Source of the DNA: Naegleria gruberi
Lineage: Eukaryota
Length of the DNA: 64,000 nucleotides
Reading direction: 5' to 3' (one strand)
Assembly: GCA_000004985.1 (NCBI GenBank)
Contig: GG738928.1
Position 1 is the stretch's first letter, and each line of letters opens with the position of its first letter. The notes under the pieces are model-generated. The model made no database searches, was not told the DNA's origin, and saw only the letters and a program-made list of their open reading frames with translations. Position numbers and translations under genes: made by a program. Shown here piece after piece: positions 5,175-47,108 of the stretch.

Positions 5175-8100
5175 ATGAGAACAACACTGAATAAGAATGC
5201 TATCAAACACTCTTCGGCAACACTTGGTGTCTTGATGAAGAAATCATCATCATCTTGTGGAGTGTTTGTAAAGAAGAATGATTTGAATTTTGGAAATAAT
5301 AATTTAATTGATAGTAATATATCAAGAGGGTTAAATAGTAATGTTGCTAGTTTGTACAATGCACAGACAAAGAGAAGAAACATTTCGGAAGAATTGCAAA
5401 AACCTAACACTGTAAATTTGGAACAAGTTCATGATGTCATCAAGAGAAATTTGAATACCAATGAATTGGATTGTATTTTTAAGCCAAAGAGCATTTGTGT
5501 TATTGATGATTTCAATCCTGATGTTCATGCTAGTCCAGTTCCTGTACCTAACGATAGTATTAGTAGTACTTTGGCTAGAAATGTTCTCTGGAATTTAATG
5601 TCTGTGTCACAAGTCAAGGTTTATGCAGTTTCTAAACATGTGGAAAGAGTTGGCAATGAACCAAAAACAAAGAGAAGACCACATTTATTGGGTGTACCAA
5701 TGTATCCATCTCTGAGTGAATTGTCAGCATCTAAATCTACAGAACAAAAGAAATTAGAAATTGATTTGGCTGTCATTTGTTGCCATCAAGTCGAAACCAT
5801 GTTCTATGCTTTGGAGGAGTGTATCAAGAATGGTGTTAAAGGATGTGTCATTATTGGAAGTGTTTACAGCAAATTTTATGAAAAATTCAGTGAAAATGAA
5901 ACAAAGAATATTGAAAAATTCAAGGAAATTGTCAAGGGATCTGACATTAGAGTTATTGGTCCTGGTATGGGTCTTATAACACCTCTTGTAACTCAATCAG
6001 GTCAATATCACGTTGGTGAAATTTACAATAACTTTTTGAATATTACTCCAACAAATAGAAGTTCTGAACTGACTCGTGGTAAAATTGGTGTTGTTTCACA
6101 ATCTGGTGCTTTGGCAACAACCATTCTCGATTGGAGTTTGAAGCAAGGAGTAGGATTGAGTGGTTTTGCCTGTGTTGGTGCTAATCAAACTGATGTTAAC
6201 TTTGCAGATATGGTTGAACATTTTGGTAATGATCCAAATACTCATGCCATCTTGTTGTACATTGAAGATTTGGGAAATAATGAACATATTAAGAGATTTG
6301 CCAGTGCTGCCAGAAGTGTAGCTTTAAAGAAGCCAATTATTGCCATGAAGATGAACACTAACAATAGAGACGAAGACAATTACCTTAATGCCCTCTTTGA
6401 AAGAGTTGGTATTTTAAGAGTTAATTCTATTGAAGAAATGTTTTACATGTCACAGCTTATTGGAAAACAAGCCATTACAAAGGGAAACACCATTACTGTT
6501 ATTTCTAACTCTGGTGGTGCTGCAACACTTGCTGTTGACGCCATCTACCAATCTAACATTACCGAATTGGGAGCTATTTCTAACAAGAGTGCAAAACTTT
6601 TGCAAGAGAGTGGAATTGATGTAGAAGAGGCTTTACTTTCTGGAAAGAAGGCTATTCCTGTAAATATCAGAAACACAGCCACTCCTGAACAATATGTTGC
6701 TGCTTTGGATATTGTATATAACGATCCAAAGACTGACAGCGTTCTTGTCATGTTAACTCCTCAAACAAGAACAGAACCAACAAGAACTGCTCAATTCTTA
6801 CAAAGATATATTGTTGAAAAGACAAAGGAAGGAAAATTATCCAAGCCAATTATGTGCTGTTTTATGGGTGGTAGAGATGTTGAAGCAGGTAGAAGTATCT
6901 TGTTGAGTGCTAACATTCCAGCTTTTGCCTTCCCAGAAATTGCTACCAAAGTATTCCAATACAATTACAGATACTCTAAGAATTTGGAAAATTTATATGA
7001 AGATCCAAGTCTTCTCGACAATGATGATGCCAGCCAAAATGAATCATCAAAACAAAAGGCTAGAGAATACATCAAGTCCTTACTTGAAAAGAATCCAAAC
7101 AAGGAAGCTCTCAATGAATATGAGAGTCAACATCTTCTTTCACTCTATGGTATTGGCGTTCCTCAGACAAGAATTGCTAACTCTGCTGAAGAAGCTGTGG
7201 AAGCTGCCAAACATATTGGATATCCAGTTGTGCTCAAATTGCACAATAGTGATACCACCATTTCCAAGTTAGATTTGGGTGGTGTTCTTTTGAATTTGAT
7301 GGATGAAAAGCAAGTTAAACAAGGTTTCAATTCTATCAAGCAATCAGTTGAAAAGAGTAATGTCAAATTTACTGGAGTTACTGTTCAATCAGATTGTAAG
7401 AAGATTGCTACTGGTAAGAGAGATTCCATTTCATTCGAATTGTATCTAGGATCTGAAGTTGATGAAAAGTTTGGACCAGTTATTTCATTTGGTACAGGTG
7501 GCTCTTTGCATCAAATTTACAAGGATAAGAGTTATGGCATTCCTCCACTTACTGCTCCTTTGGCCTATCAACTTTTGAGAAAGACAAAGATTTCTGATGC
7601 CCTCGTTGAAAGATTCAGAAATAAGCCAGCCATTGATATTGAAGGTTTAAAGTCTTTGCTCGTTCGTTTCAGCAGAATGGTTCTTGATAATAGCGATTTG
7701 ATTAAGGAATTTGAAATTAATCCTCTTCAAGCTCTTGCTACTGACAATGAAAAGTCCTTCACTGCTCTCGACTGCAGACTCACTCTCCACAAACCAAAGG
7801 CCAAGAAGGCTCAAAATGTCATTCGTTCCTACGAAAGAAAGTATGTCACCAACGTTAGTGATGATATCCTTGTTAGACCATCCAAGTTTTCTGATTTTAG
7901 AAAGCTTCTCTCATTCTTTACCAATCTCTCACCAAAGACTTTGGAATCTAGTATTAGAGAGTCAGCTCTTCGTTCACAATGCTCCATTGCTTTCCTCAGT
8001 TTGAAGAATCAATACAATAAGGCCAAGAATCAAGATGCTCCACAACCATTGGATCCATATGCATTGAGTCTTAACACAGATGGAGACTCTAAGGAGATTT

Positions 8101-10274: not shown

Positions 10275-11209
10275 TGTTGATTTATGAAATATTGAATAAA
10301 TACTTGTATTTGAAATTTCCAAATTGTAAACATTTACAAAGATGACAGCCATTTACAGTTGACTAAACAAGTTCAGTAGTGAGGACTTTTTTAGAGAGAA
10401 TCTGTCCATCACCCACAGGTATTCGAAATTATTTTTACAATTTAAAATTAAGTGTTGGTGATTTAACGGTTAGAATTTTTCAAACCTCACTACAATTTGT
10501 TATTCGAAAGTAGTCGAAGACCGAAATGGAGAGTAAGTTTTCTTTCTGGGGATTCTTTCTCAACGTTACCCTGAAATCTAATTTTGAAAATTGTTGAAGT
10601 TTCGTCGTCTATGAGTTGTATTGAAATAGCCATGCCGGTTGTAGATAAGTTTCGAATAGAAAAAAACAAAACAACTCTAAAACTAACACACAAGAAGATT
10701 CTTCTTAGGATTCTCTCTTACTGCGCATAAACATTACCTGTGAATTTTAAACTGAAATCACACACTACGTTATTGATTAACGAAACTAAACGAAACTCTA
10801 AAATGGTCACATCAGCTGCATTCAAATATACAAATTCATTTGCTAAGGCTTCTTTCAACAAGCTCTCCAAGTCCGCATTCAAGAATTCATCAGCATCTGC
10901 CTCAAGTCACAATTTTAAATCCCAACTTTCGAATTCAAATTTTACTAGCACTACCAGTTCACAACAACGAATCGAATCCAATTTTGATCTTTTCATTAGA
11001 GAAATGAATAGAAAATAAATATTTTTTGAAAATATCCTAAAATAGAAATTGATTTTTCAAAAATAGACGTCTATTGCTTGCTTTATTTGATAAATGAATC
11101 AGTAGGTGGCTCTTTCAATCATTTCTTATTGCAGTTCTATCATTAGAATGGAACATCAATATCATGGTAGTTTTGTTATGAATCGAATGAAATATTTAAT
11201 GGATGAAAG

Positions 11210-12163
11210 CTATCTCAAAATTGTGAGCATATTTCCAAATCCAACGTACATTAATCCTGACTTGTCATCTATACACAATCCAGAACATGATCCATCATGC
11301 TTTCCCAGAAATTCTCCAGTATTCTTAACTGCATAGACTCCTTGAAATCCAGAGAAATAGAGGTTACCTGAAACCTTGTCCATAAAAAGTCCATCTGTTG
11401 TCCCCAAACTAATTTCATGTTGTTTTCCAATCCAATCTCCATTCACGTACTCGTATCTGTTAAGGCTACCAGCCAAGAAATAAATTGCATTCTTATTCGT
11501 ACGATCCACTTCAATGCATCCACTAACGAAATTATCATTTTCCAGAGGAATTCCAGTATCTGCTACCATTCCAAATGCAGAGTCTATAAAATGAATATGG
11601 GTTTGGGAAAGAACTATAACTAAACGCCTTCCATCTAAATTCATCCAATTTACCGTATCACAAATAAATCCTCCATGATCTGGAATAGAATAATTCCACA
11701 ATGGTTTACACTCTTCCTTCTCATGAATAAACCTCTTCAAATCATACTTGCTCACCACTCCCATCCTATTCGTCAATAATGCATCATTTCCCAAACCATC
11801 ATAATCCTCTTCAATCGTAAAATACAAACAATCAGTCTTGATCCTCGTTCTGATCTGATGTGTCGAATAATCAATCACTAAAAAAGCCGAATCAGTCAAG
11901 GCTAAAATACACGAACAAGTACTCGATATTCTGACATCATATATTTCTTTATCGGGAGAACAATCAATCTCTCCCTCCCATTCAAACTTGTTGGAAAAGG
12001 CTAGCCTATTCTTTGATCGTAATTTTTGTTTCAACATTCCAAAATTACAAGTTAAGGAATTGTTGTCGGTGTCTTGATCATCAAAATGGTGCTGATGTAC
12101 TGTATTGAATTTGATACGGAAATCAAAGAGTGTGAGGGTTACTGCCGATTCATCTTGAGCCAT
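11210..12163 (-). CDS. Hypothetical protein (317 aa), possibly a beta-propeller-like fold
   Basis: Long ORF MAQDESAVTLTLFDFRIKF... with repeated DG/GxxY-type segments. Shares a 113-bp divergent promoter with the gene at 12277. Confidence 0.4.
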   Translation of the reverse strand: MAQDESAVTLTLFDFRIKFNTVHQHHFDDQDTDNNSLTCNFGMLKQKLRSKNRLAFSNKFEWEGEIDCSPDKEIYDVRISSTCSCILALTDSAFLVIDYSTHQIRTRIKTDCLYFTIEEDYDGLGNDALLTNRMGVVSKYDLKRFIHEKEECKPLWNYSIPDHGGFICDTVNWMNLDGRRLVIVLSQTHIHFIDSAFGMVADTGIPLENDNFVSGCIEVDRTNKNAIYFLAGSLNRYEYVNGDWIGKQHEISLGTTDGLFMDKVSGNLYFSGFQGVYAVKNTGEFLGKHDGSCSGLCIDDKSGLMYVGFGNMLTILR

Positions 12164-15189: not shown

Positions 15190-15913
15190 ATGGCCAAAGG
15201 AGGAAAAACAGCAGCTAGTGTAAAGAAGGGATCATCATCTGGAGGTTCTCTAGAATACAATCCGAAGAAAAATCTTGTAGAAATAATTCCTGGAGTTGTT
15301 GGGCCGGTTTTACTGCCCACTTTACCAACACCAGGAACACCATTGAATACAAACTATGCAGGACCAACAGATTATTCAAATTGGCTGATACCACATCATA
15401 TTTGTGTCGGAGGATATCCAAGATCAAAGGAAGTTGATAGTATTGTATCGAGTGGAGTGACAACTTTTGTTAATTTAGTGGAGGAAGATGAACAATTGAG
15501 ATGTGGACCATTCTATTTTGCAAATGCATTGAAAAAGACAACAAGATCTAAATTGAATTATGTTACATTTCCAATAAGAGATAAGAATATTGCTGAAGAT
15601 GACAAAGTGACGGAATTAGTGACATTGTTAGCTCAATTGGTGAATAGAGGTGAAGTTTTATACGTTCACTGTGTTGGGTAAGTACTATACTATATGTTTC
15701 GAATATATATTGAACTCAATATTTAACAGAGGACATGGAAGAACAGGAACAGTCGCAGCCATTCTCCTTGGTCAACTCTTCAATATTTCAGCCTATGACA
15801 GTTTAAAGTGGGTTCAACTTTTCCATGACGAACGAAAAGTAACAAATGGAAGAAAGAGTCCAGAGTCAACCGTTCAAAGAGATCAAGTTTTCAGACTTTT
15901 ATCAAAGAAATAA
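15190..15913 (+). CDS. Dual-specificity / PTP-superfamily phosphatase (CX5R); 2 exons, join(15190..15677, 15730..15913)
   Basis: Exon 1 ends ...EVLYVHCVG at donor GTAAGT (15678). Exon 2 follows acceptor AG at 15729. The spliced product reads VHCVGGHGRTGTVAAILLGQ, which carries the HCxxGxxRT P-loop. Confidence 0.7.
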
Positions 15914-15962
15914 AAAAACAAGGCTTTGAGAATTTAAGCGCCAAAAAAAACCTTAAAAAAAA

Positions 15963-18940
15963 ATGTCAAACAATCATCCACTCAACTTGTTCTCGGCTGA
16001 TTTGTATTCATCTGATGAGGATGAAGATTTGATTCAGAATGGTGGCGATCAGCATGGTAGTATGATGATGAGGATGGAAAATGGTGGTGCTTTGGATAGA
16101 TCCTTTGGGAGAGGAGGAGGACAACCTCAACAATCAACATCACATTTGAATCAATTGAATGATTCTTCTTTCGTTTCGGTAGCCTCTACTGGTGGAGCTT
16201 CTTCTTCTCTCAGTGTTGGTACTCCTGCAAGGAACACTGTTCGTAGTACTGATGCTAATAATGATGAAGATGAAGAAGCCTTAGAGAATGAGACTCCAGT
16301 GATACTCTCGTTGTGTTATCAGAGAGGAAGACTTGGCGTTGCTGCTTTTGATATGAATTCAGGTGAATTATTGTGTGGAGAAACCAATGAGAATACTCTC
16401 TTTGAAGCAACAGAATTCGGTATGTTTCTTATTGTTCAAATATTATTGAATTGGTCGAATTGATGATGAACAGTCAAATTTGAAGTAAAGCCTAATTTAA
16501 TTCTTGTTCCTTCCCGACTGGAACAATCCTTCATGAAACATGTTAAAAAGCCAATCGAAGGAGCAAAAGAGCAACAAATTGAAGTCAAGCTACTCAAGTC
16601 TTCTGATTTTAGTGCTGAGAATGCCACCAAGAAGATTCAATTATTAGAGAATGTATTACTCGGTAATCAAAATGATAGAATGATGACAGATGAGGAACCC
16701 TCCACTCCCATTCTTAACAATGGACCAGCATTTCTTAAACAAGCAAATAGATTAAGGCAAGTCAGTGAGAAGAATGATAACATGTTTGATTTTTCCTCAC
16801 TCTACGTTGAGGAGAATACACAGACAGTGAGAGCTTTGGGAGGATTATTGTGTCATATTCAAACCAATAGACTCTCTTTTGGTGAGCTTGATGATATTGA
16901 AGTCTTAAAGAACATCAAGAATATCAAAAATTTCAAGTTGTAAGTTGGTCAATTCACAGATATTACAAACTCATATGAAGTGAAGGATTTGTACAATTAG
17001 ATTTGAATACGTTGAAGGCTCTGTCAATATTTAGTTGTAAGTAGATTTTCAAATCAAAATTCTCATGCTCATGTTGTCACAGTGGAATCACATCCTTCAA
17101 GTTCTCTCGGTAAGCCAAAGGAAGGATTGTCATTATTTGGTATTATGAATAAGACAAAATCATCTGTTGGTAAAGATCTTCTTCGTCAATGGTTTTTGAA
17201 ACCAGTAATGGACTTGGATATTATCAAGAAGCGTCATGATGCCATAGATTATTTTAGCAGATTCTCAGATGATATTATTGACGAAATAAGGGAAAATCTC
17301 AAATTTGTTAAAAACACCAAACGTATCATCAACAGAATGAGAGAAGCAAAAGCAACAGTGAATGATTGGAGTAATCTCTACAAGACCTTGTACTGTTACA
17401 AGAATATTACTGAAATTCTGTCAGAAATGGATGATAATCCTTCCGTAGAAGTAGCCCAAGACTTGCTTAACCACGACAATGAGTCTATCATGAAAGTATT
17501 ACAAGCAATATCAAAAATTGTCGATCTCAAAGAGTCAAGAAGTCAAAACAGATTGGTCATAATGACAGGAGTCAACTCTGAACTTGATAATAGAAGACAA
17601 ACATATGAATCGTTAGATACATTCCTTGATCTGGTTGCTCAACAAGAATCCAACTCATTTCCTGAGGATTTCCCCTTCTCATTCAAGGCAGTGTACTACC
17701 CTCAACTTGGATTCCTTCTTGTGGTTGATAAGAATGAAACCTCTGAGAATTATTCAGAGTATGCTCAGTATGGGCTACGTTTTCATTTTTCCTCAGATCG
17801 TTCCTTGTACTTTAAAAACGACACAACTGATGAGCTGGACACAGAGGTTGGAGATATACACCACTTGATTATTGAACAAGAAACCTCCATTTCAGTTAAA
17901 TTGGAAAAATATGTGCTTCAATACCATGACCAAATTAACAAATCCAATGATCTTTGTGCCAAACTTGATTGTATCATTTCTATGGCTAATTGTGCCAGTG
18001 AGTTCAACCTATCAAGACCAGTAATGACCAACGAGAGTAAGCTCAATATTAGGGAAGGTAAGAATATTCTCCAAGAGTTAACAGTAGATACTTTCATTCC
18101 CAACGACACAAATATATCTGAATGTATTCAAATTATTACTGGTCCAAATAATTCTGGTAAATCTTGTTATTTGAAACAAGTAGGTTTAATTGTATTCATG
18201 GCTCATATTGGATCATTTGTGTCAGCATCTCCAGAATCAGTAATAGGAGTTGTAGATAGAATAATGACAAGAATTCAATCACAAGATAGTATCAGTGTTA
18301 GTCAATCCACTTTTGCCATTGATGTACTCCAAATGAAGGCCATGGTTGACTTTGCTTCTTCAAGATCTCTTCTCCTCATTGGTAAGTTTTTCAAACGCAC
18401 TTAATTCCAATAATATTATCAAAAGATGAATTTGGAAAAGGTACTTTGGCACTGGATGGAATAGCTCTCTTATCAGCAATCCTCAAACATTTCCAAGAAA
18501 GAGAACATGTACCGAGAGTGATTGTCACTACTCACTATGTTGAAGTGCTTCAACACAAAATCATTGATGTAAACTCAACATCTATTCAATTCATGACCAT
18601 GGATGTATTGATTGATTCAGTCAATGAATTGCCAAATGATATGGAAGATGAACACTTTGTGGTTCCAAGTGCTGAGGATTTAGTGTTTTTGTACAAATTG
18701 ACACGTGGTAAAATAATCCCAAGTTACGGCATAACTGTTGCCTCACTCGCTGGTCTTCCAAACCAAATTATTGAGAGAGCAAAATTTGTTGCCGAAAGGT
18801 TATCCAAATCAAAACCTATTGAAGCTGTAAAAGACAATGAGAAGGGAAAACTGTTCTATGAATTGTATGACCGTTTCAGAAAGTGTGACGGTTCTGAAGA
18901 GAGTATCAAGCAACTCTTCAACTTTGTCAAGTCAATTTGA
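15963..18940 (+). CDS. msh5: MutS homolog MSH5-like (meiotic MutS family, lacks a mismatch-binding domain I); 5 exons, join(15963..16419, 16474..16939, 16981..17036, 17083..18381, 18426..18940)
   Basis: Introns are 54, 41, 46 and 44 nt (GTATGT or GTAAGT ... AG). The 56-nt exon 3 encodes FEGFVQLDLNTLKALSIFS, the conserved MutS LDxxTxxNLEL motif. Exon 4 has SLFGIMNKTKSSVGKDLLRQWFLKPVMDLDIIKKRHDAIDYF (MutS domain III/IV) and the Walker A motif TGPNNSGKSCYLKQVGLIVFMAHIGSFVSA. Across the last intron: ST F...SLLLI|DEFGKGTLALDGIALLSAI...VIVTTHY (Walker B / ABC signature). Confidence 0.75.
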
Positions 18941-19141
18941 GCATAATATTTTTTCATTCTATTAAGCAGCTTTTTTGGTGACTGAAAAATATTGAATACA
19001 TCTTTCAATGATATAACTCTCCACTTTCTCTAGAGTCATATTTGCCAAATGTGCACCTTTCAATCTGTAATTGTTCATTTCTTTGAGATTGCTTAATAAG
19101 GGTTATAATTTTGGAAAAGTTCATCGACACAATAAAAAAAA

Positions 19142-19894
19142 ATGACTGGCAATCAAGGTCCACCATTCGACAGATCCCAAGATCCTCAGAATGGACTCAT
19201 CTACCCAACATTCTTTTGGTGCCACTATTGTCAAGAAAATCCAAGTGGAAGTGGCTGGCGTTATTCCTACGAAATGACCAACTTTGTTTGTATTCCCTTA
19301 ATATTTAATTATTAACAAGTTCATGATGATTCATTTACAACAATACTTATTACTGATGTGGTGAATGTACAGAGACCACGTATTACTTGCAAAGGGGATT
19401 TGATTGGCTTGGAACAAACCTACAATGTTGATTTATCATTTGCATCACACGGTACTGATGTTTCTGATATTTCAGAGTGTTGCAATGTCTGGTTTGGTTA
19501 TCCACATAATTCACTATTCGAACATGCAGTAGATGGTAACTTGACTGCCTTAAAGAAATGTTTAGAAAATACTAATAACAGTCATGATATCAATGAAAAA
19601 CTCCAATTCGGTGATGAATGGACTCCTTTACATGGTGCAGTCGTTTACAATCAATTGGAAATTGTTGAACATTTGTTAAAACATGGTGCTGATTATACAA
19701 TTACCGATAAAAGAGGAAGATCGTGTCTCACCTTGGCTAGGATTTTGAATTTTACACAATGTGTTACCATGTTGAAGAAATATGTTAGTTCTGATTATTT
19801 ACAAAATCAATATCAAAATGAATTAGCAGAAAATGAACGTCAACTTGCTCAAACAAGATCAGAACTTATTACAAGTTATGGAATGAATGCATAA
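19142..19894 (+). CDS. Ankyrin-repeat protein; probable 2 exons, join(19142..19285, 19373..19894)
   Basis: Exon 2 contains clear ankyrin repeats (GDEWTPLHGAVVYNQLEIVEHLLKHGADYTITDKRGRSCLTLA). Exon 1 (MTGNQGPPFDRSQDPQNGLIYPTFFWCHYCQENPSGSGWRYSYEMTNF) is joined through a weak GTTTGT donor and a phase-0 CAG acceptor. The exon 1 assignment is tentative. Confidence 0.5.
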
Positions 19895-19971
19895 ATTTAT
19901 TATTTGATAGTAATTCAATTATTAAATTCAATTATTCAAAATTCAATTTGCACTAATTCAAATTTAAAAAA

Positions 19972-20440
19972 ATGCAAGTAAAGGTTGAATTTAGGTAAGA
20001 GGATAATTTCATAGTACTGATATCATCAAATCTTCGGAATAGTGGTGGATGCGAATTACTTTTCGATAATCAAACTTCAATGAATTTGGAAGTTGAAGAA
20101 GGATTGACAATGCAACAATTAATTCTCTTGTTGAAAGAAAAGCACTTGAAAGAAAAACCAGAACTTTTCATCAATAACGAAAATACATCAGTGTAAGGAT
20201 CATCACAGTGATTAGATATATTATAATATTATTTTTTTAATTATTACATCAACAATATTCATAACGATCAACATCTTCATCATACCAATAATCATCATTA
20301 TCAAATAATTTAAATAATTTAGGAGACCTGGTATTTTAGTAATTATTAATGATACTGATTGGGAATTATTGGACGAATTAAGTTACAAGATTCAAGCCAA
20401 AGATAACATTGTTTTCATTTCAACTCTTCACGGAGGATAA
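19972..20440 (+). CDS. urm1: Ubiquitin-related modifier 1 (URM1); 3 exons, join(19972..19994, 20043..20192, 20323..20440). Not in the ORF track.
   Basis: The spliced product [96 protein letters not shown] can be aligned with human and yeast URM1 as recalled (VEVEFGGG...RPGVLVLINDADWELLGE...FISTLHGG), including the C-terminal GG. Donors GTAAGA and GTAAGG; introns 48 and 130 nt. Confidence 0.8.
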
Positions 20441-20441
20441 T

Positions 20442-21553
20442 TTATTGCATATACCAACCATGTGAAACAATCATTGATTGACCAGTTAAAGCATTAGTTG
20501 GATGTGAAGCAAAGAATAAAGTAGCTTGAGCAACATCATCAATTGTAGTAAATTCACCATCAACAGTGTCTTTTAACATGATATTCTTAACAACTTCTTG
20601 TTCACTAATGCCCAATTCCTTAGCTTGTTCTGGAATTTGCTTTTCAACAAGAGGAGTCAAAACGAAACCTGGACAAATAACGTTGGCACTAACACCCTTC
20701 TTAGCACCTTCCTTAGCAACAGCACGACACAAACCCAAAACACCATGTTTAGCAGAAACGTATGGAGCCTTCAATGGAGAAGCAAGCTTTGAGTGAACTG
20801 AACCAATATAGATAATCTTACCATACTTTTGTTCGTACATTTGCTTCAAAGCTTCACGAGTACACAAGAAAGCAGCATCCAAATGAACAGAAACAATCTT
20901 TCTCCAATTATCAAAACTCAATTTGTCAACTGGGTCAATATGTTGAACACCAGCATTACAAATTACAACGTCGATTGGCTTACCGAAATGCTTCTTAATA
21001 GCTTCATAGGTTTCAGTAACAACTTGTTCCTTGGTAACATCCATACCAACAGCCAAGTGTTGTGTAGCATTGTCAAGACCAGCAACAGTTGCTTGAGCAG
21101 CAGCCAAGTTCAAATCTCCAACAACGACTTTACCTCCTTCTTTAGCAAATAATTGAGCAATACCCTTTCCGATACCACTTCCAGCACCTATTATTATTAA
21201 TTGATGATGAATATTAATTATAATTATTAGTATGAGTATTATTATTAATAGTAATATTTTAATATAATCAACAAGTAGCAACGTGATTAATAGATGAGGA
21301 AAATAATAGATGAATATTATAATAGATGAAAAAACATATAATTGTACGACAGATACAAACGATCAAAGTTTTAAAACAATCCAATCCTTTAAAAAAACTT
21401 ACCAGTAACGAGACAAACCTTTCCTTCCAACTTTCCAGCCATTGGATTTTGGGAAGTAGAGAAGAGTCTTTGGGAGGCAGCCAAATTAAATTGTGGAGCA
21501 GTGGAGGATCTGAAGGCGAGTCTTTGAGATTGAGCAAGGGCGCGTTTGAACAT
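20442..21553 (-). CDS. Bacterial-type D-3-hydroxybutyrate dehydrogenase-like short-chain dehydrogenase/reductase with a mitochondrial presequence; 2 exons, join(21553..21403, 21188..20442)
   Basis: Exon 1: MFKRALAQSQRLAFRSSTAPQFNLAASQRLFSTSQNPMAGKLEGKVCLVTG, with donor GTAAGT. A 214-nt AT-rich intron. Exon 2: GAGSGIGKGIAQLFAKEGGKVVVGDLN...NAGVQH...YVSAKHGVLGL...PGFVLTPLV. This carries the TGxxxGxG and YxxxK SDR motifs. The tail TGQSMIVSHGWYMQ resembles that of 3-hydroxybutyrate dehydrogenase. The ORF-track N-terminus (MLLVDYIKILLLIII...) is a read-through of the intron. Confidence 0.75.
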
Positions 21554-21852
21554 TTTTTCTGTTTTGAAAAAAAAGCGAAAATAAAACGCGAAAGTGTCAA
21601 AAAGGTGAATTGAGGTTGGTGGTTGAATTATTCATGTGTGTTTAAGCTGTTAGCTTGCAGTGAATTGGAATTCTAATTTGGAAATGTGGATTTTCTTGTG
21701 AGGTGGAGCTCGGTTATTATTCAAATGTTATTAAAGAATAGTAGTATGGAAGTTGTGTGACAGTGTTCACGTAATATTTTTACAATCATGTTCAATACTG
21801 TTACAGTAATGGAGTAATAATAATTGAAAATATTTTTTATAGTTTAGTAAGG

Positions 21853-23034
21853 TTACAAAATTTTCTTAAGCTCATCTTGTTGTGCAGTAGTGAGACTAGT
21901 TGGGAAAATGACATTGAATTCAATGTGAAGATCACCCCTTTGAGCTGGGTTTTCCTTTCTTGGCATACCTTCACCCTTTACAACTCTAATACTGTTTGGT
22001 TTGATGACGTTATCAATCTTAATTTGTAAATTTCTGTCATCCAAATGTTTGATAATTTTGGTGAGTCCAGTCAAACTTTCCTTCAAAGAAATATCCATCT
22101 TCATCTTTAAATCGTCACCAACTCTAGTAAATGTAGAGTGTTCCTTAGTCTTGACAATAAAGATCAAATCACCACTACGATGAGATCTGGTAGCATCACC
22201 TTCACCATAGAAAATGATTTCTTCACCATCTCTCATACCTCTATCAATTTGTATCGTTAATGCAGTAGCCTTTTGAACAACATCGAAACGATTCTTACAT
22301 TCTTCACAATTATTTTCAGTCATTCTCTTCATAACACCATTGATAACCATCATTCTGATAACCTTATTTCTACATTCACATTTCTTTGGTTGAGAATTTC
22401 CTTCATGAGCAGTTCTAACTCTCTTAAAGTTCATAAGTCTACCATTGTAGAGATTTTCCAAAGTAACTTCGAGTGGGATTCTCAAATCTTGACCCTTGAA
22501 TTCATCTTCTTCTTCTTGTCCATCATTACCTCCACCAAAATTGAAATGGAAACCACCACCTCCACCAAAGAATTCAGAGAAAATATCCATTCCTCCCATT
22601 CCACCACCAGGATGACCTCCTCTTTCTTGTTGTTTTAATCCTTCTTCTCCATATCTATCATAAACTTGTCTCTTTTTTTCATCGGATAAGACTTCATAGG
22701 CATGTGAAATTTGGGCATACTTTTTTTGAGCATCAGCCTTATCATCACCCTTGTATCTATCAGGGTGATATTTCATTGTCAACTTTTTAAATGCTCGTTT
22801 AATTTGGTCTTGAGCAGCATTCTTTGGAACGTGTAAAGTTTCATAAAGATCAGCAGCTAAACAACTACCAATAAACAAAATACAACAACACAATACAAGA
22901 AGGAGAGAAAATCTAATAGATGATGATCTTCGGGAAGTAGTCATTGTTTGATGATGAAAATTTCCGCCACCTGTTGAGAAGGAATTCATTTTTTTTCTCT
23001 TTGCTTTTTTGCAAAGAGTTTTCATTCCGAACAC
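21853..23034 (-). CDS. DnaJ/Hsp40 with an N-terminal signal-anchor (ER-lumenal ERdj3/Scj1-like)
   Basis: Hydrophobic LLLVLCCCILFIGSCLA is followed by the J domain DLYETLHVPKNAAQDQIKRAFKKLTMKYHPDRYKGDDKADAQKKYAQISHAYEVLSDEKKRQVYDRYG (HPD motif), then a G/F-rich region and the C-terminal DnaJ substrate-binding domains. The true start may be the internal ATG at 22989 (MNSFSTGG...). Confidence 0.75.
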   Translation of the reverse strand: MFGMKTLCKKAKRKKMNSFSTGGGNFHHQTMTTSRRSSSIRFSLLLVLCCCILFIGSCLAADLYETLHVPKNAAQDQIKRAFKKLTMKYHPDRYKGDDKADAQKKYAQISHAYEVLSDEKKRQVYDRYGEEGLKQQERGGHPGGGMGGMDIFSEFFGGGGGFHFNFGGGNDGQEEEDEFKGQDLRIPLEVTLENLYNGRLMNFKRVRTAHEGNSQPKKCECRNKVIRMMVINGVMKRMTENNCEECKNRFDVVQKATALTIQIDRGMRDGEEIIFYGEGDATRSHRSGDLIFIVKTKEHSTFTRVGDDLKMKMDISLKESLTGLTKIIKHLDDRNLQIKIDNVIKPNSIRVVKGEGMPRKENPAQRGDLHIEFNVIFPTSLTTAQQDELKKIL

Positions 23035-23212: not shown

Positions 23213-24701
23213 ATGAGTCAACAGCAACAACAGGACTTGGTGGAGGAATTTAAAAAGATTGCCGATCGTTTGAAAAAGTAAGTGATTTGTTGGAGTGGTG
23301 TGATTTTGGAACAAGGTGATTTATAATTATCTATTATAATTTGGAATTTATATCGGATGGAAATTATCAAACATAATTAATATTAAATCGTTAATTAATA
23401 ATATAAAATTATCTGCCACATGTGATCAATTAATTAAATAATAGAAAGATGTTTAGGAAAATACCCTACGATCAAATCTCTGAACAATATGCAAACTTTT
23501 CCCTTCATCTTCAAAGAACTGGACAAAAACATTATACAGCAGTTTCAATGTTGTGTGCTGCCAAGTAAGTTTTCTAGCCTAATAACTCTTGGAAAATAAC
23601 ATCTATACTAGTGCTGAGAAGTTGAACAAGACACCACTCAATGCAGCCTTCTTTTACGTCTACTCGGGAAGAATCTTCTCGGATCAGGCTTGTAGTGAAA
23701 ACTTAATTCAATACTTTACAGCAGAGGAATTCATATCCGAAGCAATTGATGCTTTTAGAGAAGCTATAGAGGTTTGTTTCACAATGAGCTTGAATTAATT
23801 TATATTAATAATTATTAAATTTATATTATTACATGATGATAATATTAAAATTTATTGAATGAATTAATCCTATCAATTAATTGTATCGGACTGGCTTTAA
23901 TATTAAATTGACCATAATTTTGGATTGAATATTTACAATGATCATTCATGATAATAGATATACGATTCCAATGGAGTTTATTCAATGTGTGCTTCATTAT
24001 GTTTTGAAGTGGCTCATGTTCTTAAAGTTTTAGGAAAATATAGTGAGAGTTCACACTTTTATTCGAAATGTTACTTTTACACTGTAAAACAGGGAAAACT
24101 AGGAGAAGAACACTACGATTCTTCAGATGTAGATTATTTATCAAATTTATCATTGAGTAGAGATACTTCTCATTCGATGGAATTGAATGCACTTCAAAAT
24201 GCTATTGATTGTCTATTGGAAATTAAGGATTTTGAAATGGCTGTTTTGAGAATTAAGATTTATATTGGTATTTTGGAGGAGAGAATTGATGCCTTTTCAA
24301 ATCCATACACTTCAGATCATTCTACAAAAGTTCCAGAGTGGAGGCCAATATTTAAAATCTACATTAGACAATGGATGGATACACAAATAACGTTACTTCT
24401 AGTTTTATTATTACAAAAGAGAAAGGAAGAAGCAACTGAAGTATTCGAGACACTGACAAATAACGGAGATGGAGATAATTGGATTTCGAGTGAATTTCCA
24501 TTTTTCAATGAAAATGTATTACCAATTTTAGAGGCCCTTAAGGAAAATTGTCTGTGTGACAATATTGATGGAATTGAACAAGTCATTTCACAAGAATTAC
24601 AATTCTGTGTTACTGAGCAACAACAAACTCTGCTCAATATTTTGAAACACACCTATGAAAATCCACTTTTCATGGACATTTTGGAAAAGAAAGGTGAATA
24701 A
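23213..24701 (+). CDS. F8A/HAP40-like helical-repeat protein (tentative); 4 exons, join(23213..23277, 23445..23564, 23612..23771, 23958..24701)
   Basis: Spliced N-terminus: MSQQQQQDLVEEFKKIADRLKKKMFRKIPYDQISEQYANFSLHLQRTGQKHYTAVSMLCAAKNAEKLNKTP...YFTAEEFISEAIDAFREAIE|IYDSNGVYSMCASLCFEVAHVLKVLGKY.... The pattern F..Y..VSNKLKKRFLRKP...A..F..LG....A...C resembles the N-terminal region of the huntingtin-associated protein HAP40, from memory. Donors GTAAGT, GTAAGT and GTTTGT (weak). Confidence 0.45.
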
Positions 24702-24712
24702 ACTATTTACAA

Positions 24713-25576
24713 TTACATGGACTCATAATAGGAGGCAATAATAGTTACGAGAGCCTTATTATGCTCCTCTTTTGGGAAAATTCTCGATTCGAATCCTTCT
24801 ATTGCCTTCCTTGAAATTATATGTTCTACTGTACAACCATTATCATTCAGCACTTGAAATACTTCACTAATAGTATTTGGTGCAGATAATTGATTTGAAG
24901 TTTTGGAATTCAAACCTTCACAATTTACAAAGCTCACTAATTTGAACTTGTCAAATCCAACACTGACTGATGCAAATTTTTTCTTTCTCGTTAATAAAAA
25001 TTGGATAGCTTCTGACATTTCCATGAATGAAAAGTAAGAAGCTTCAATACTCAATCTTTGTAATAAATTTAAATCATTGGTTGGTAGACATTGTTTCATT
25101 TCATTCTTATCCAACATTCGCATACAATCCAAAACATATTTAAATAATTCGGGATTTCTATCAATGAAAATATTATTCTTCTTTCTCTGTTGATTTATAA
25201 TAAGTGGTTCATTAAAAATCATAGATGGATTCGAATAGAAAGCATCCGAAATTGTAGCTCCATTAATACTTCCAATCGGAGAAGTGACCCCACTCAATGG
25301 AGAAACAGATAACGATCCACCTCCACTAAAAACATTTAATAAATTATTCGATTGTTGTTGCTGATGATGAAAATGCAGCTGCTGCTGTTGCGAATATTGA
25401 TGCTGCTGAGATTCGTGGAACCGAAAGTGAGCTGAAAAGTAACATTCATATCGACTCAGGGTTTCACGAAGGGCCTGAAACACTGTTCCTCCTACATTGA
25501 TGGTAATAATGTCGTCATCTTGTTGATCAGCCACATCGAATTGGTTAACAAAGAGATTGGGAGATGTGACTGACAT
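24713..25576 (-). CDS. BTB/POZ (K+-channel-tetramerisation type) domain protein with an internal poly-Q/H insert
   Basis: DDIITINVGGTVFQALRETLSRYECYF ... (QQQQ/HHQQQQ insert) ... IFIDRNPELFKYVLDCMRML. Together these form a KCTD-like BTB fold. Confidence 0.6.
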   Translation of the reverse strand: MSVTSPNLFVNQFDVADQQDDDIITINVGGTVFQALRETLSRYECYFSAHFRFHESQQHQYSQQQQLHFHHQQQQSNNLLNVFSGGGSLSVSPLSGVTSPIGSINGATISDAFYSNPSMIFNEPLIINQQRKKNNIFIDRNPELFKYVLDCMRMLDKNEMKQCLPTNDLNLLQRLSIEASYFSFMEMSEAIQFLLTRKKKFASVSVGFDKFKLVSFVNCEGLNSKTSNQLSAPNTISEVFQVLNDNGCTVEHIISRKAIEGFESRIFPKEEHNKALVTIIASYYESM

Positions 25577-25801
25577 GTTTTAATAATATTGAATTTTTTT
25601 AAGTTGCAGCTACTGTAGGAACAAAGATGGTTTGACAGATTGATGATGACACTCCGAATGAGACATGCAATTATCCTTATGAACTCACCAGTTGTGAACG
25701 AATGACTTGGTTGGGAACGTGACAGAACTTTGCCTTATTTAAAAGAAAAAGCATCAATTCTATTGTACAAAAGAGTAAAGTTGATAACATCAACATGAAC
25801 T

Positions 25802-25874
25802 GCTGGCGTAGCTCAGTCGGTAGAGCGTTGGTCTAATAAGCCATTGGTCGCCGGTTCGATCCCGTCCGTCAGCA
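25802..25874 (+). tRNA. tRNA-Ile (anticodon AAT)
   Basis: GCTGGCGTAGCTCAGTCGGTAGAGCGTTGGTCTAATAAGCCATTGGTCGCCGGTTCGATCCCGTCCGTCAGCA. Cloverleaf features: GCTC/GAGC D-stem, anticodon loop CTAATAA, T-loop TTCGATC, acceptor stem 7 bp with one G-T pair. My manual fold leaves one mismatch each in the anticodon and T stems. A downstream TTTTATTTAT could serve as a pol III terminator. Confidence 0.7.
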
Positions 25875-25910
25875 TAAGTTTTATTTATAATAAAAAGCAA
25901 AGATTTTTAT

Positions 25911-47035: not shown

Positions 47036-47108
47036 TGCCGACACCAGGGATCGAACCAGGGACCTTAAGATCTTCAGTCTTACGCTCTCCCAACTGAGCT
47101 ATGTCGGC
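47036..47108 (-). tRNA. tRNA-Phe (anticodon GAA)
   Basis: Minus strand: GCCGACATAGCTCAGTTGGGAGAGCGTAAGACTGAAGATCTTAAGGTCCCTGGTTCGATCCCTGGTGTCGGCA. Perfect acceptor stem and a CTGAAGA anticodon loop. It is close to the human tRNA-Phe sequence as I recall it, with T51-T63 where human has a T-G pair. The oligo-T (tgccgacAAATTTT) follows on the transcribed strand. Confidence 0.8.

Follow-up and report, generated by a model that had tools for sequence, protein, structure and literature searches.

The locus raises the question of whether a piece of Naegleria gruberi DNA in which the open reading frame (ORF) track is blank holds a functional URM1 gene, and whether the single nucleotide between the stop codon of this gene and that of a convergent dehydrogenase gene reflects a regulatory arrangement or the packing of a compact genome. 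In yeast and human, URM1 is a beta-grasp sulfur carrier. The E1-like enzyme Uba4/MOCS3 activates the Gly-Gly at its C-terminus by adenylation and thiocarboxylation. The sulfur passes via Ncs6/Ncs2 (CTU1/CTU2) to the 2-thio group of mcm5s2U34 in the cytosolic tRNAs for Lys, Glu and Gln, and the URM1 thiocarboxylate is also conjugated to target proteins under oxidative stress. We examined the locus within a window, i.e. the whole analysed stretch of 64,000 nucleotides (contig GG738928.1), and we consider it very probable that it carries a functional N. gruberi URM1 orthologue missed by annotation, whose 3' overlap with the neighbouring gene is most likely a passive outcome of genome compaction.

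A three-exon URM1 gene in the window

We confirmed that the window holds a real, intact three-exon N. gruberi URM1 gene. The original prediction had spliced three exons of 23, 150 and 118 nt into a URM1 ending in GG at a place without any entry in the ORF track. Both parts were borne out: the longest ORF on either strand between 19895 and 20441 encodes 38 aa, so the ORF track is blank at URM1, and all exon coordinates hold, the three exons together giving 291 nt in frame. The gene consists of the following features.

19972-19994, plus strand: exon 1, 23 nt; ATG, codons 1-7 and 2 nt of codon 8
19995-20042, plus strand: intron 1, 48 nt, GTAAGA...ATAG, with stops in all three frames
20043-20192, plus strand: exon 2, 150 nt; codes for G9 and G10 (both invariant), followed by the ELLF stretch and by KPELF
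20193-20322, plus strand: intron 2, 130 nt, GTAAGG...TTAG, 20% GC, with stops in all three frames
20323-20440, plus strand: exon 3, 118 nt; ...STLHGG and the stop codon TAA (20438-20440)

Splicing and translation of 19972-20440 (plus strand) yielded a product of 96 aa that runs from MQVKVEFSGG to FISTLHGG and is followed by TAA. All four splice sites are canonical (GT-AG), the GC content is about 0.2 in the introns versus about 0.31 in the exons, and the A-rich context of the start codon is conserved. An in-frame TAA lies six codons 5' of the ATG and leaves no room for an N-terminal extension within exon 1. A scan of 19000-22000 with Rfam gave zero matches, so that neither the introns nor the junction contain a snoRNA or another known RNA. 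No tRNAs were found near the URM1-dehydrogenase junction. In metagenome and metatranscriptome contigs, a degenerate pattern across the exon 2-exon 3 junction had 0 matches and a protein-guided scan for URM1 relatives gave none that were confirmed.

The spliced product belongs to the URM1 family

Alignment of the spliced protein to the Pfam Urm1 family had been proposed as a check of the gene model. The match to this profile (PF09138) is full length (profile positions 1-96 of 96), with 114.4 bits against a cut-off of 21.8 and E=3.3e-33, and a secondary match to the ThiS family of Pfam is also present. Solved URM1 structures, namely 1xo3 (mouse), 2k9x (T. brucei), 6yuc and 2pko, a set that includes Chaetomium thermophilum and yeast, were aligned over residues 3-96 (E=9e-27 to 2e-15), and these alignments span both splice junctions without a break. 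The comparison points to a beta-grasp (ubiquitin-like or ThiS-MoaD-like) fold for the predicted protein.

In an alignment of 35 URM1 sequences, the N. gruberi protein matches all of the invariant columns (17/17). G9 and G10, which stand directly after junction 1, and R59-P60-G61, which stand directly after junction 2, are invariant URM1 residues; the C-terminal STLHGG directly precedes the TAA, and its G95 and G96 are invariant in 35/35 homologues. With its 96 residues the protein has the length of known URM1 proteins (about 96-101 aa; yeast Urm1p, PDB 2QJL/2PKO, mouse 1XO3 and T. brucei Urm1, 2K9X) and shares with them the motifs EFxGG, VRPGIL, INDxDWEL and the C-terminal STLHGG. It differs from them by a two-residue insertion, carrying NNENTS where most URM1s have 4 residues. 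This insertion is common to the other Naegleria species and Willaertia. Overall, the N. gruberi protein is an ordinary member of the URM1 family, the orthologues of which are already annotated with matching structure in three related species.

Conservation of the gene in Heterolobosea

The strongest evidence for the predicted gene model comes from comparison with independently annotated orthologues, for which we used those of N. fowleri (XP_044559531.1), N. lovaniensis (XP_044545500.1), Willaertia magna (KAL9652176.1) and Acrasis kona (KAL0479426.1). In the homology search, protein identity to N. gruberi URM1 was 81% for N. lovaniensis, 77% for W. magna and 63% for A. kona, and the N. fowleri protein falls in the N. 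lovaniensis cluster; for the Naegleria species and Willaertia together the range is 77-81%. The exon structures of the five genes are given below.

N. gruberi: exons of 23, 150 and 118 nt; both introns in phase 2
N. lovaniensis: exons of 23, 153 and 118 nt; both introns in phase 2, at homologous codons
N. fowleri: exons of 23, 153 and 118 nt; both introns in phase 2, at homologous codons
A. kona: exons of 23, 144 and 118 nt; both introns in phase 2, at homologous codons
W. magna: exons of 23 and 268 nt; intron 1 kept, intron 2 lost

The first exon of 23 nt and the phase-2 intron 1 are kept in N. lovaniensis, N. fowleri, W. magna and A. kona, and the W. magna gene, which is without intron 2, reads uninterrupted across the position of junction 2 (...GTSIRPGIL...). 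At the level of sequence, the related species confirm both junctions. Moreover, the nearest relatives of the predicted gene are URM1 genes, with a syntenic position and matching exon structure, which argues for orthology.

Between N. gruberi and the other Naegleria species, the URM1 exons are 77-83% identical and the introns 47-60% (intron 1 alone 52-60%), the latter being close to a shuffled mean of 43%. Comparison with three orthologues gave dN/dS ratios of 0.06-0.09 at saturated synonymous sites, which indicates that N. gruberi URM1 is an intact gene under purifying selection and not a relic. The intact GG, the invariant residues and the purifying selection support the view that the protein may have retained its role as a sulfur carrier and modifier in N. 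gruberi.

The convergent neighbour

On the opposite strand, the neighbouring gene comprises three features.

20442-21187, minus strand: dehydrogenase last exon; the stop codon is the complement of 20442-20444
21188-21402, minus strand: dehydrogenase intron, 215 nt, GTAAGT...ATAG
21403-21553, minus strand: dehydrogenase first exon; encodes the N-terminal extension (about 40 aa) and the beginning of the TGAGSGIG motif

The spliced two-exon product (21553-21403 joined to 21187-20442) is identical to XP_002669359.1 (NAEGRDRAFT_82176) of N. gruberi NEG-M. Its earlier description as hydroxybutyrate-dehydrogenase-like proved accurate, since it scored 336.9 bits with the NCBIfam model for 3-hydroxybutyrate dehydrogenase (NF009093, cut-off 258) and its top solved relatives are all bacterial (putative) hydroxybutyrate dehydrogenases, the first being PDB 6zzo (1e-91). 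In two sibling models the protein fell just under the cut-off (NF009931, 330.5 vs 340; TIGR01963, 303.4 vs 307.05). The SDR motifs TGxxxGIG and YxxxK are present as TGAGSGIG, which lies across the splice junction, and YVSAK. Judged by these matches, the predicted enzyme is a 3-hydroxybutyrate dehydrogenase of the bacterial type and an SDR. Both the NCBIfam and the PDB alignments begin at residue 39-45, and the extension of about 40 aa that stays outside the bacterial alignments is probably a mitochondrial presequence, which would place the enzyme in mitochondria.

How unusual is the spacing

The prediction that the two stop codons are one nucleotide apart was correct: the TAA of URM1 (20438-20440) is followed by T (20441) and by the TAA of the dehydrogenase gene (complement of 20442-20444). 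The window holds further convergent pairs, listed here with the stop coordinates of the two genes and the gap between them.

24701 / 24713, convergent: gap 11 nt; both genes conserved in N. lovaniensis, the plus-strand gene present in the N. gruberi annotation
33192 / 33226, convergent: gap 33 nt; a RasGEF gene and a 250-aa ORF
56836 / 56917, convergent: gap 80 nt; a GATase gene and an F-box / DUF1963 gene
three further convergent pairs: gaps 314-329 nt, measured between ORF ends only

In a 12-kb locus of W. magna, the convergent gaps are 7, 11 and 81 nt. Tight tail-to-tail spacing at URM1 is the extreme of a common pattern in N. gruberi and its relatives and not an isolated oddity.

URM1 and the dehydrogenase gene are convergent neighbours in N. 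gruberi, N. lovaniensis, N. fowleri and W. magna, with different flanking genes in W. magna, and are not neighbours in A. kona. The pair has been adjacent since before the split of Naegleria and Willaertia. Its persistence in W. magna despite the changed flanks may reflect either selection on the pair or the lack of a neutral breakpoint. Measured from stop to stop, the two genes stand 1 nt apart in N. gruberi and 11 nt apart in W. magna, against 138 nt in N. fowleri and 143 nt in N. lovaniensis. The distance of 1 nt is not conserved, nor is the overlap conserved across the species, as the spacers of 138 and 143 nt can accommodate both 3' untranslated regions (UTRs) at median length.

Predicted 3' ends and transcript overlap

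Three features around the two stop codons bear on the ends of the transcripts.

20441, no strand: T, the one nucleotide that separates the stop codons, read from the sequence
20441-20446, minus strand: AATAAA overlapping the dehydrogenase stop; candidate "dual-use" stop and poly(A) signal, predicted to be used
20515-20520, plus strand: AATAAA 75 nt past the URM1 stop, antisense to and inside the coding sequence of the dehydrogenase; candidate poly(A) signal for URM1

At the dehydrogenase stop the minus strand reads ATG CAA TAA ATT, and AATAAA is also found at or beside the dehydrogenase stop of N. lovaniensis, N. fowleri and W. magna. URM1, by contrast, carries no canonical poly(A) hexamer at or near its stop; the hexamer at 20515-20520 is the sole plus-strand AATAAA or ATTAAA within 20300-20700 and is antisense to the dehydrogenase codons for Thr-Leu-Phe. 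By direct RNA sequencing, the poly(A) signal of N. gruberi was determined as AAUAAA, with cleavage following 15-20 nt downstream; 3' UTRs have a median length of 39 nt, and 11-13% of the stops overlap AAUAAA, in which case the median 3' UTR is 22 nt (PMC11529991). The dehydrogenase stop likewise lies within AATAAA, as in the N. gruberi genes with "dual-use" stop and AAUAAA (Genome Res 2024, PMC11529991), and this candidate differs from other dual-use stops in that the roughly 22 nt that follow it are the last coding codons of the gene on the opposite strand.

Because the dehydrogenase stop is embedded in AATAAA, the 3' end of this mRNA would be expected inside the last coding exon of URM1, most likely about 15-25 nt past the stop. 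The URM1 mRNA, in turn, would end within the antisense dehydrogenase coding region. Use of the hexamer at 20515 would give it a 3' UTR of about 95-100 nt and leave the two mature mRNAs with a complementary stretch of some 100-120 nt. With a single nucleotide between the stops, a 3' UTR of whatever length, on either gene, must run into the coding exon of the partner, and from this geometry and the published 3' UTR lengths of N. gruberi (PMC11529991) the predicted mutual 3' overlap of the two mRNAs is near-certain. The exact 3' ends given here are estimates, that of the URM1 mRNA being a guess.

Convergent pairs with overlapping 3' ends (natural cis-antisense pairs) occur in compact eukaryotic genomes, e.g. 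in budding yeast, and their possible effects include polymerase collision and the formation of mRNA-mRNA duplexes. The locus is like such pairs in having tail-to-tail genes whose 3' UTRs, by the predicted overlap, are necessarily complementary. Unlike in such pairs, the 1-nt spacer would make each 3' UTR overlap coding sequence of the partner in addition to its UTR. The 1-nt gap and the poly(A) signal embedded in the stop are the extreme of a documented trait, that of ultrashort 3' UTRs and dual-use stops, and the locus reveals no new kind of system; it is a tidy but ordinary feature of a compact genome. As such it provides a clean example of 3'-end packing, in which a poly(A) signal fused to the stop would send the 3' end into the coding exon of the neighbour, and a convenient site for testing 3'-end formation or antisense effects in Naegleria.

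Is the overlap a regulatory device?

The tail-to-tail overlap might also be a selected regulatory module, in which antisense pairing or polymerase collision couples the expression of URM1 and of the dehydrogenase or makes the two mutually exclusive. We consider this improbable. The adjacency kept in the three Naegleria species and in W. magna, despite the differing neighbours in the latter, speaks for such a module, but in A. kona URM1 is not beside the dehydrogenase gene, and the survival of the pair in W. magna could equally fit two abutting genes with no harmless breakpoint between them, for which selection on antisense pairing is not required. The spacing is very tight in two lineages (1 and 11 nt); however, unrelated genes often form convergent pairs that are just as tight, and the longer spacers of N. 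fowleri and N. lovaniensis fit two median 3' UTRs of 39 nt without overlap. In N. gruberi and W. magna only, a plus-strand AATAAA is found at the same dehydrogenase codon, 73 nt from the dehydrogenase stop, yet this coincidence is explained by the codons ACT-TTA-TTC of the conserved Thr-Leu-Phe. Furthermore, over the last 35 codons of the dehydrogenase, synonymous-codon identity exceeds that of the upstream codons by a small and non-significant margin.

The more specific proposal of a sense-antisense switch between URM1 and the dehydrogenase in N. gruberi, acting through the complementary 3' ends of about 100-120 nt or through colliding polymerases, appears to us somewhat less probable still. 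If true, it would tie a modifier involved in tRNA thiolation and oxidative stress to a mitochondrial ketone-body enzyme and make the expression of the two mutually dependent. On the reading that we prefer, genome compaction, the overlap would be a passive by-product and not a dedicated regulatory device.

A hidden constraint on the overlapped dehydrogenase codons was considered separately and rejected: synonymous identity is higher in the species pair with the long spacers, and the comparisons with W. magna are partly out of register. Literature searches returned no paper on Naegleria URM1, MOCS3 or overlapping convergent genes.

URM1 is missing from the reference annotation

The gene had been termed hidden with regard to the ORF track, and this holds in a stronger sense as well: the reference gene set of N. 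gruberi NEG-M is without a model for URM1, which is the only new point on the gene itself. Neither the exact 96-aa protein nor its variant starting at Met21 is present in a collection of about 15 billion catalogued proteins, and the homology search returned no N. gruberi protein among the URM1 homologues. The order of annotated genes around URM1 was read from accession numbers. UniProt identifiers run consecutively around the site, from D2W2V5 (ankyrin gene) through D2W2V6 (dehydrogenase) and D2W2V7 (DnaJ) to D2W2V8 (next gene), and on the plus strand the GenBank identifiers pass directly from EFC36582 (ankyrin, ending at 19894) to EFC36583 (a gene starting at 23985). The absence of the protein from the collection, together with the consecutive flanking accessions, leads to the conclusion that the reference annotation has no URM1 model; in comparison with the annotated orthologues, N. 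gruberi URM1 is alone in this respect.

Gene finders have a classic blind spot for short genes with several exons, and URM1 would have been overlooked in this way, with three short exons (23, 150 and 118 nt) of which none forms a sizeable ORF. The gap matters mainly as a point of annotation hygiene. N. gruberi NEG-M serves as the reference heterolobosean proteome in many presence/absence surveys of eukaryotic gene families, and surveys based on this proteome would wrongly score URM1 as missing, and with it a part of the pathway of cytosolic tRNA 2-thiolation and urmylation.

The missing model might instead mean that what resembles URM1 is a pseudogene, either decaying or not expressed, which the annotators had no reason to include, a view that we hold to be very unlikely. 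What speaks for it are the lack of a model in the reference annotation, which is explicable by the blind spot described above, and the scans of metagenome and metatranscriptome contigs that gave no confirmed match; against it stand the intact frame, the four canonical splice sites, the conserved A-rich start context, the presence of every invariant URM1 residue and the low dN/dS of 0.06-0.09 at saturated synonymous change. Hardly credible is a different gene model, e.g. with other splice sites or with a start at the exon 2 Met (20080) and without exon 1, which could appeal to the small size of exon 1 (23 nt) and to the 38-aa ORF opened by the ATG at 20080, but which would drop the conserved first beta-strand segment VEFSGGxELLF, encoded in frame upstream and directly after the AG acceptor, and would disregard both the 23-nt exon with its phase-2 intron conserved in four other heteroloboseans and the Pfam alignment beginning at profile position 1. 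The pseudogene and the alternative start were both rejected on the invariant residues, the exon structures of the orthologues and the dN/dS values.

A candidate poly(A) signal within the dehydrogenase codons

The 3-hydroxybutyrate dehydrogenase gene convergent to URM1 carries the hexamer AATAAA (AAUAAA in RNA) within its codons, on the strand that is sense for URM1, at the following positions:
N. gruberi, window 20515-20520, + strand
Willaertia magna, L002 (W. magna locus) 6433-6438, + strand

The hexamer lies at exactly the same codon position, 73 nt from the dehydrogenase stop, in both species, and these are the two in which the convergent genes are tightly spaced. At that codon position in N. 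lovaniensis and N. fowleri the + strand AATAAA is absent and the Leu codon is TTG. The hexamer could be a poly(A) signal for URM1, or could be a coincidence of codon usage.

The W. magna gene is organized as follows:
L002 6001-6348, URM1, intron 2 lost

The loss of intron 2 in W. magna is precise, and the intron is kept in Acrasis, a more distant relative. Within the 11-nt spacer of this convergent pair, AATAAA hexamers overlap both stop codons.

The dehydrogenase itself (20442-21553, - strand) is of the bacterial SDR type, its best solved relatives being bacterial (~1e-91). Its N-terminus is extended by about 40 aa resembling a mitochondrial presequence. The gene may have come from bacteria and may serve the ketone-body or lipid metabolism of Naegleria.

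Genes upstream of URM1

Genes noted upstream of URM1 in the window:
15190-18940, + strand, MutS5-like gene with multiple exons, its MutS_III and MutS_V domains spread across several ORFs
19358-19894, + strand, ankyrin-repeat gene EFC36582.1 (240 aa), earlier exons further upstream

The MutS5-like gene is syntenic with the other Naegleria species and Willaertia, and MutS5 stands immediately upstream of URM1 in N. lovaniensis and N. fowleri. The ankyrin-repeat gene lacks a counterpart at the matching position in N. lovaniensis, N. fowleri and W. magna. Its end lies 77 nt upstream of the URM1 ATG, and this interval must be common to the URM1 promoter and 5' UTR and to the ankyrin gene 3' UTR.

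Other features of the window

Another very tight convergent pair, with a stop-to-stop gap of 11 nt, was observed at 23985-25576:
stop at 24701, + strand, part of EFC36583.1/D2W2V8
stop at 24713, - strand, BTB-domain gene

The stop at 24701 sits inside an AATAAA (gAATAAAc). Between the gene for a 362-aa protein and the BTB gene, N. lovaniensis and N. fowleri have a 2OG-Fe(II) oxygenase gene, which the N. gruberi window lacks at the equivalent site (~24700):
N. lovaniensis, L001 (its locus) 10663-11340
N. fowleri, L003 (its locus) 10908-11582

The 90% protein cluster of the N. gruberi ORF 23985-24698 includes products of two contigs, one from ENA (1.9 kb) and one from Logan/ENA (41 kb); one of these products is identical to the ORF across its 238 aa. 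Public assemblies beyond the reference genome therefore contain N. gruberi-like DNA, in which the URM1 locus might be available a second time.

Two tRNA genes were noted in the window:
25801-25875, + strand, tRNA-Ile(AAT)
47036-47108, - strand, tRNA-Phe(GAA)
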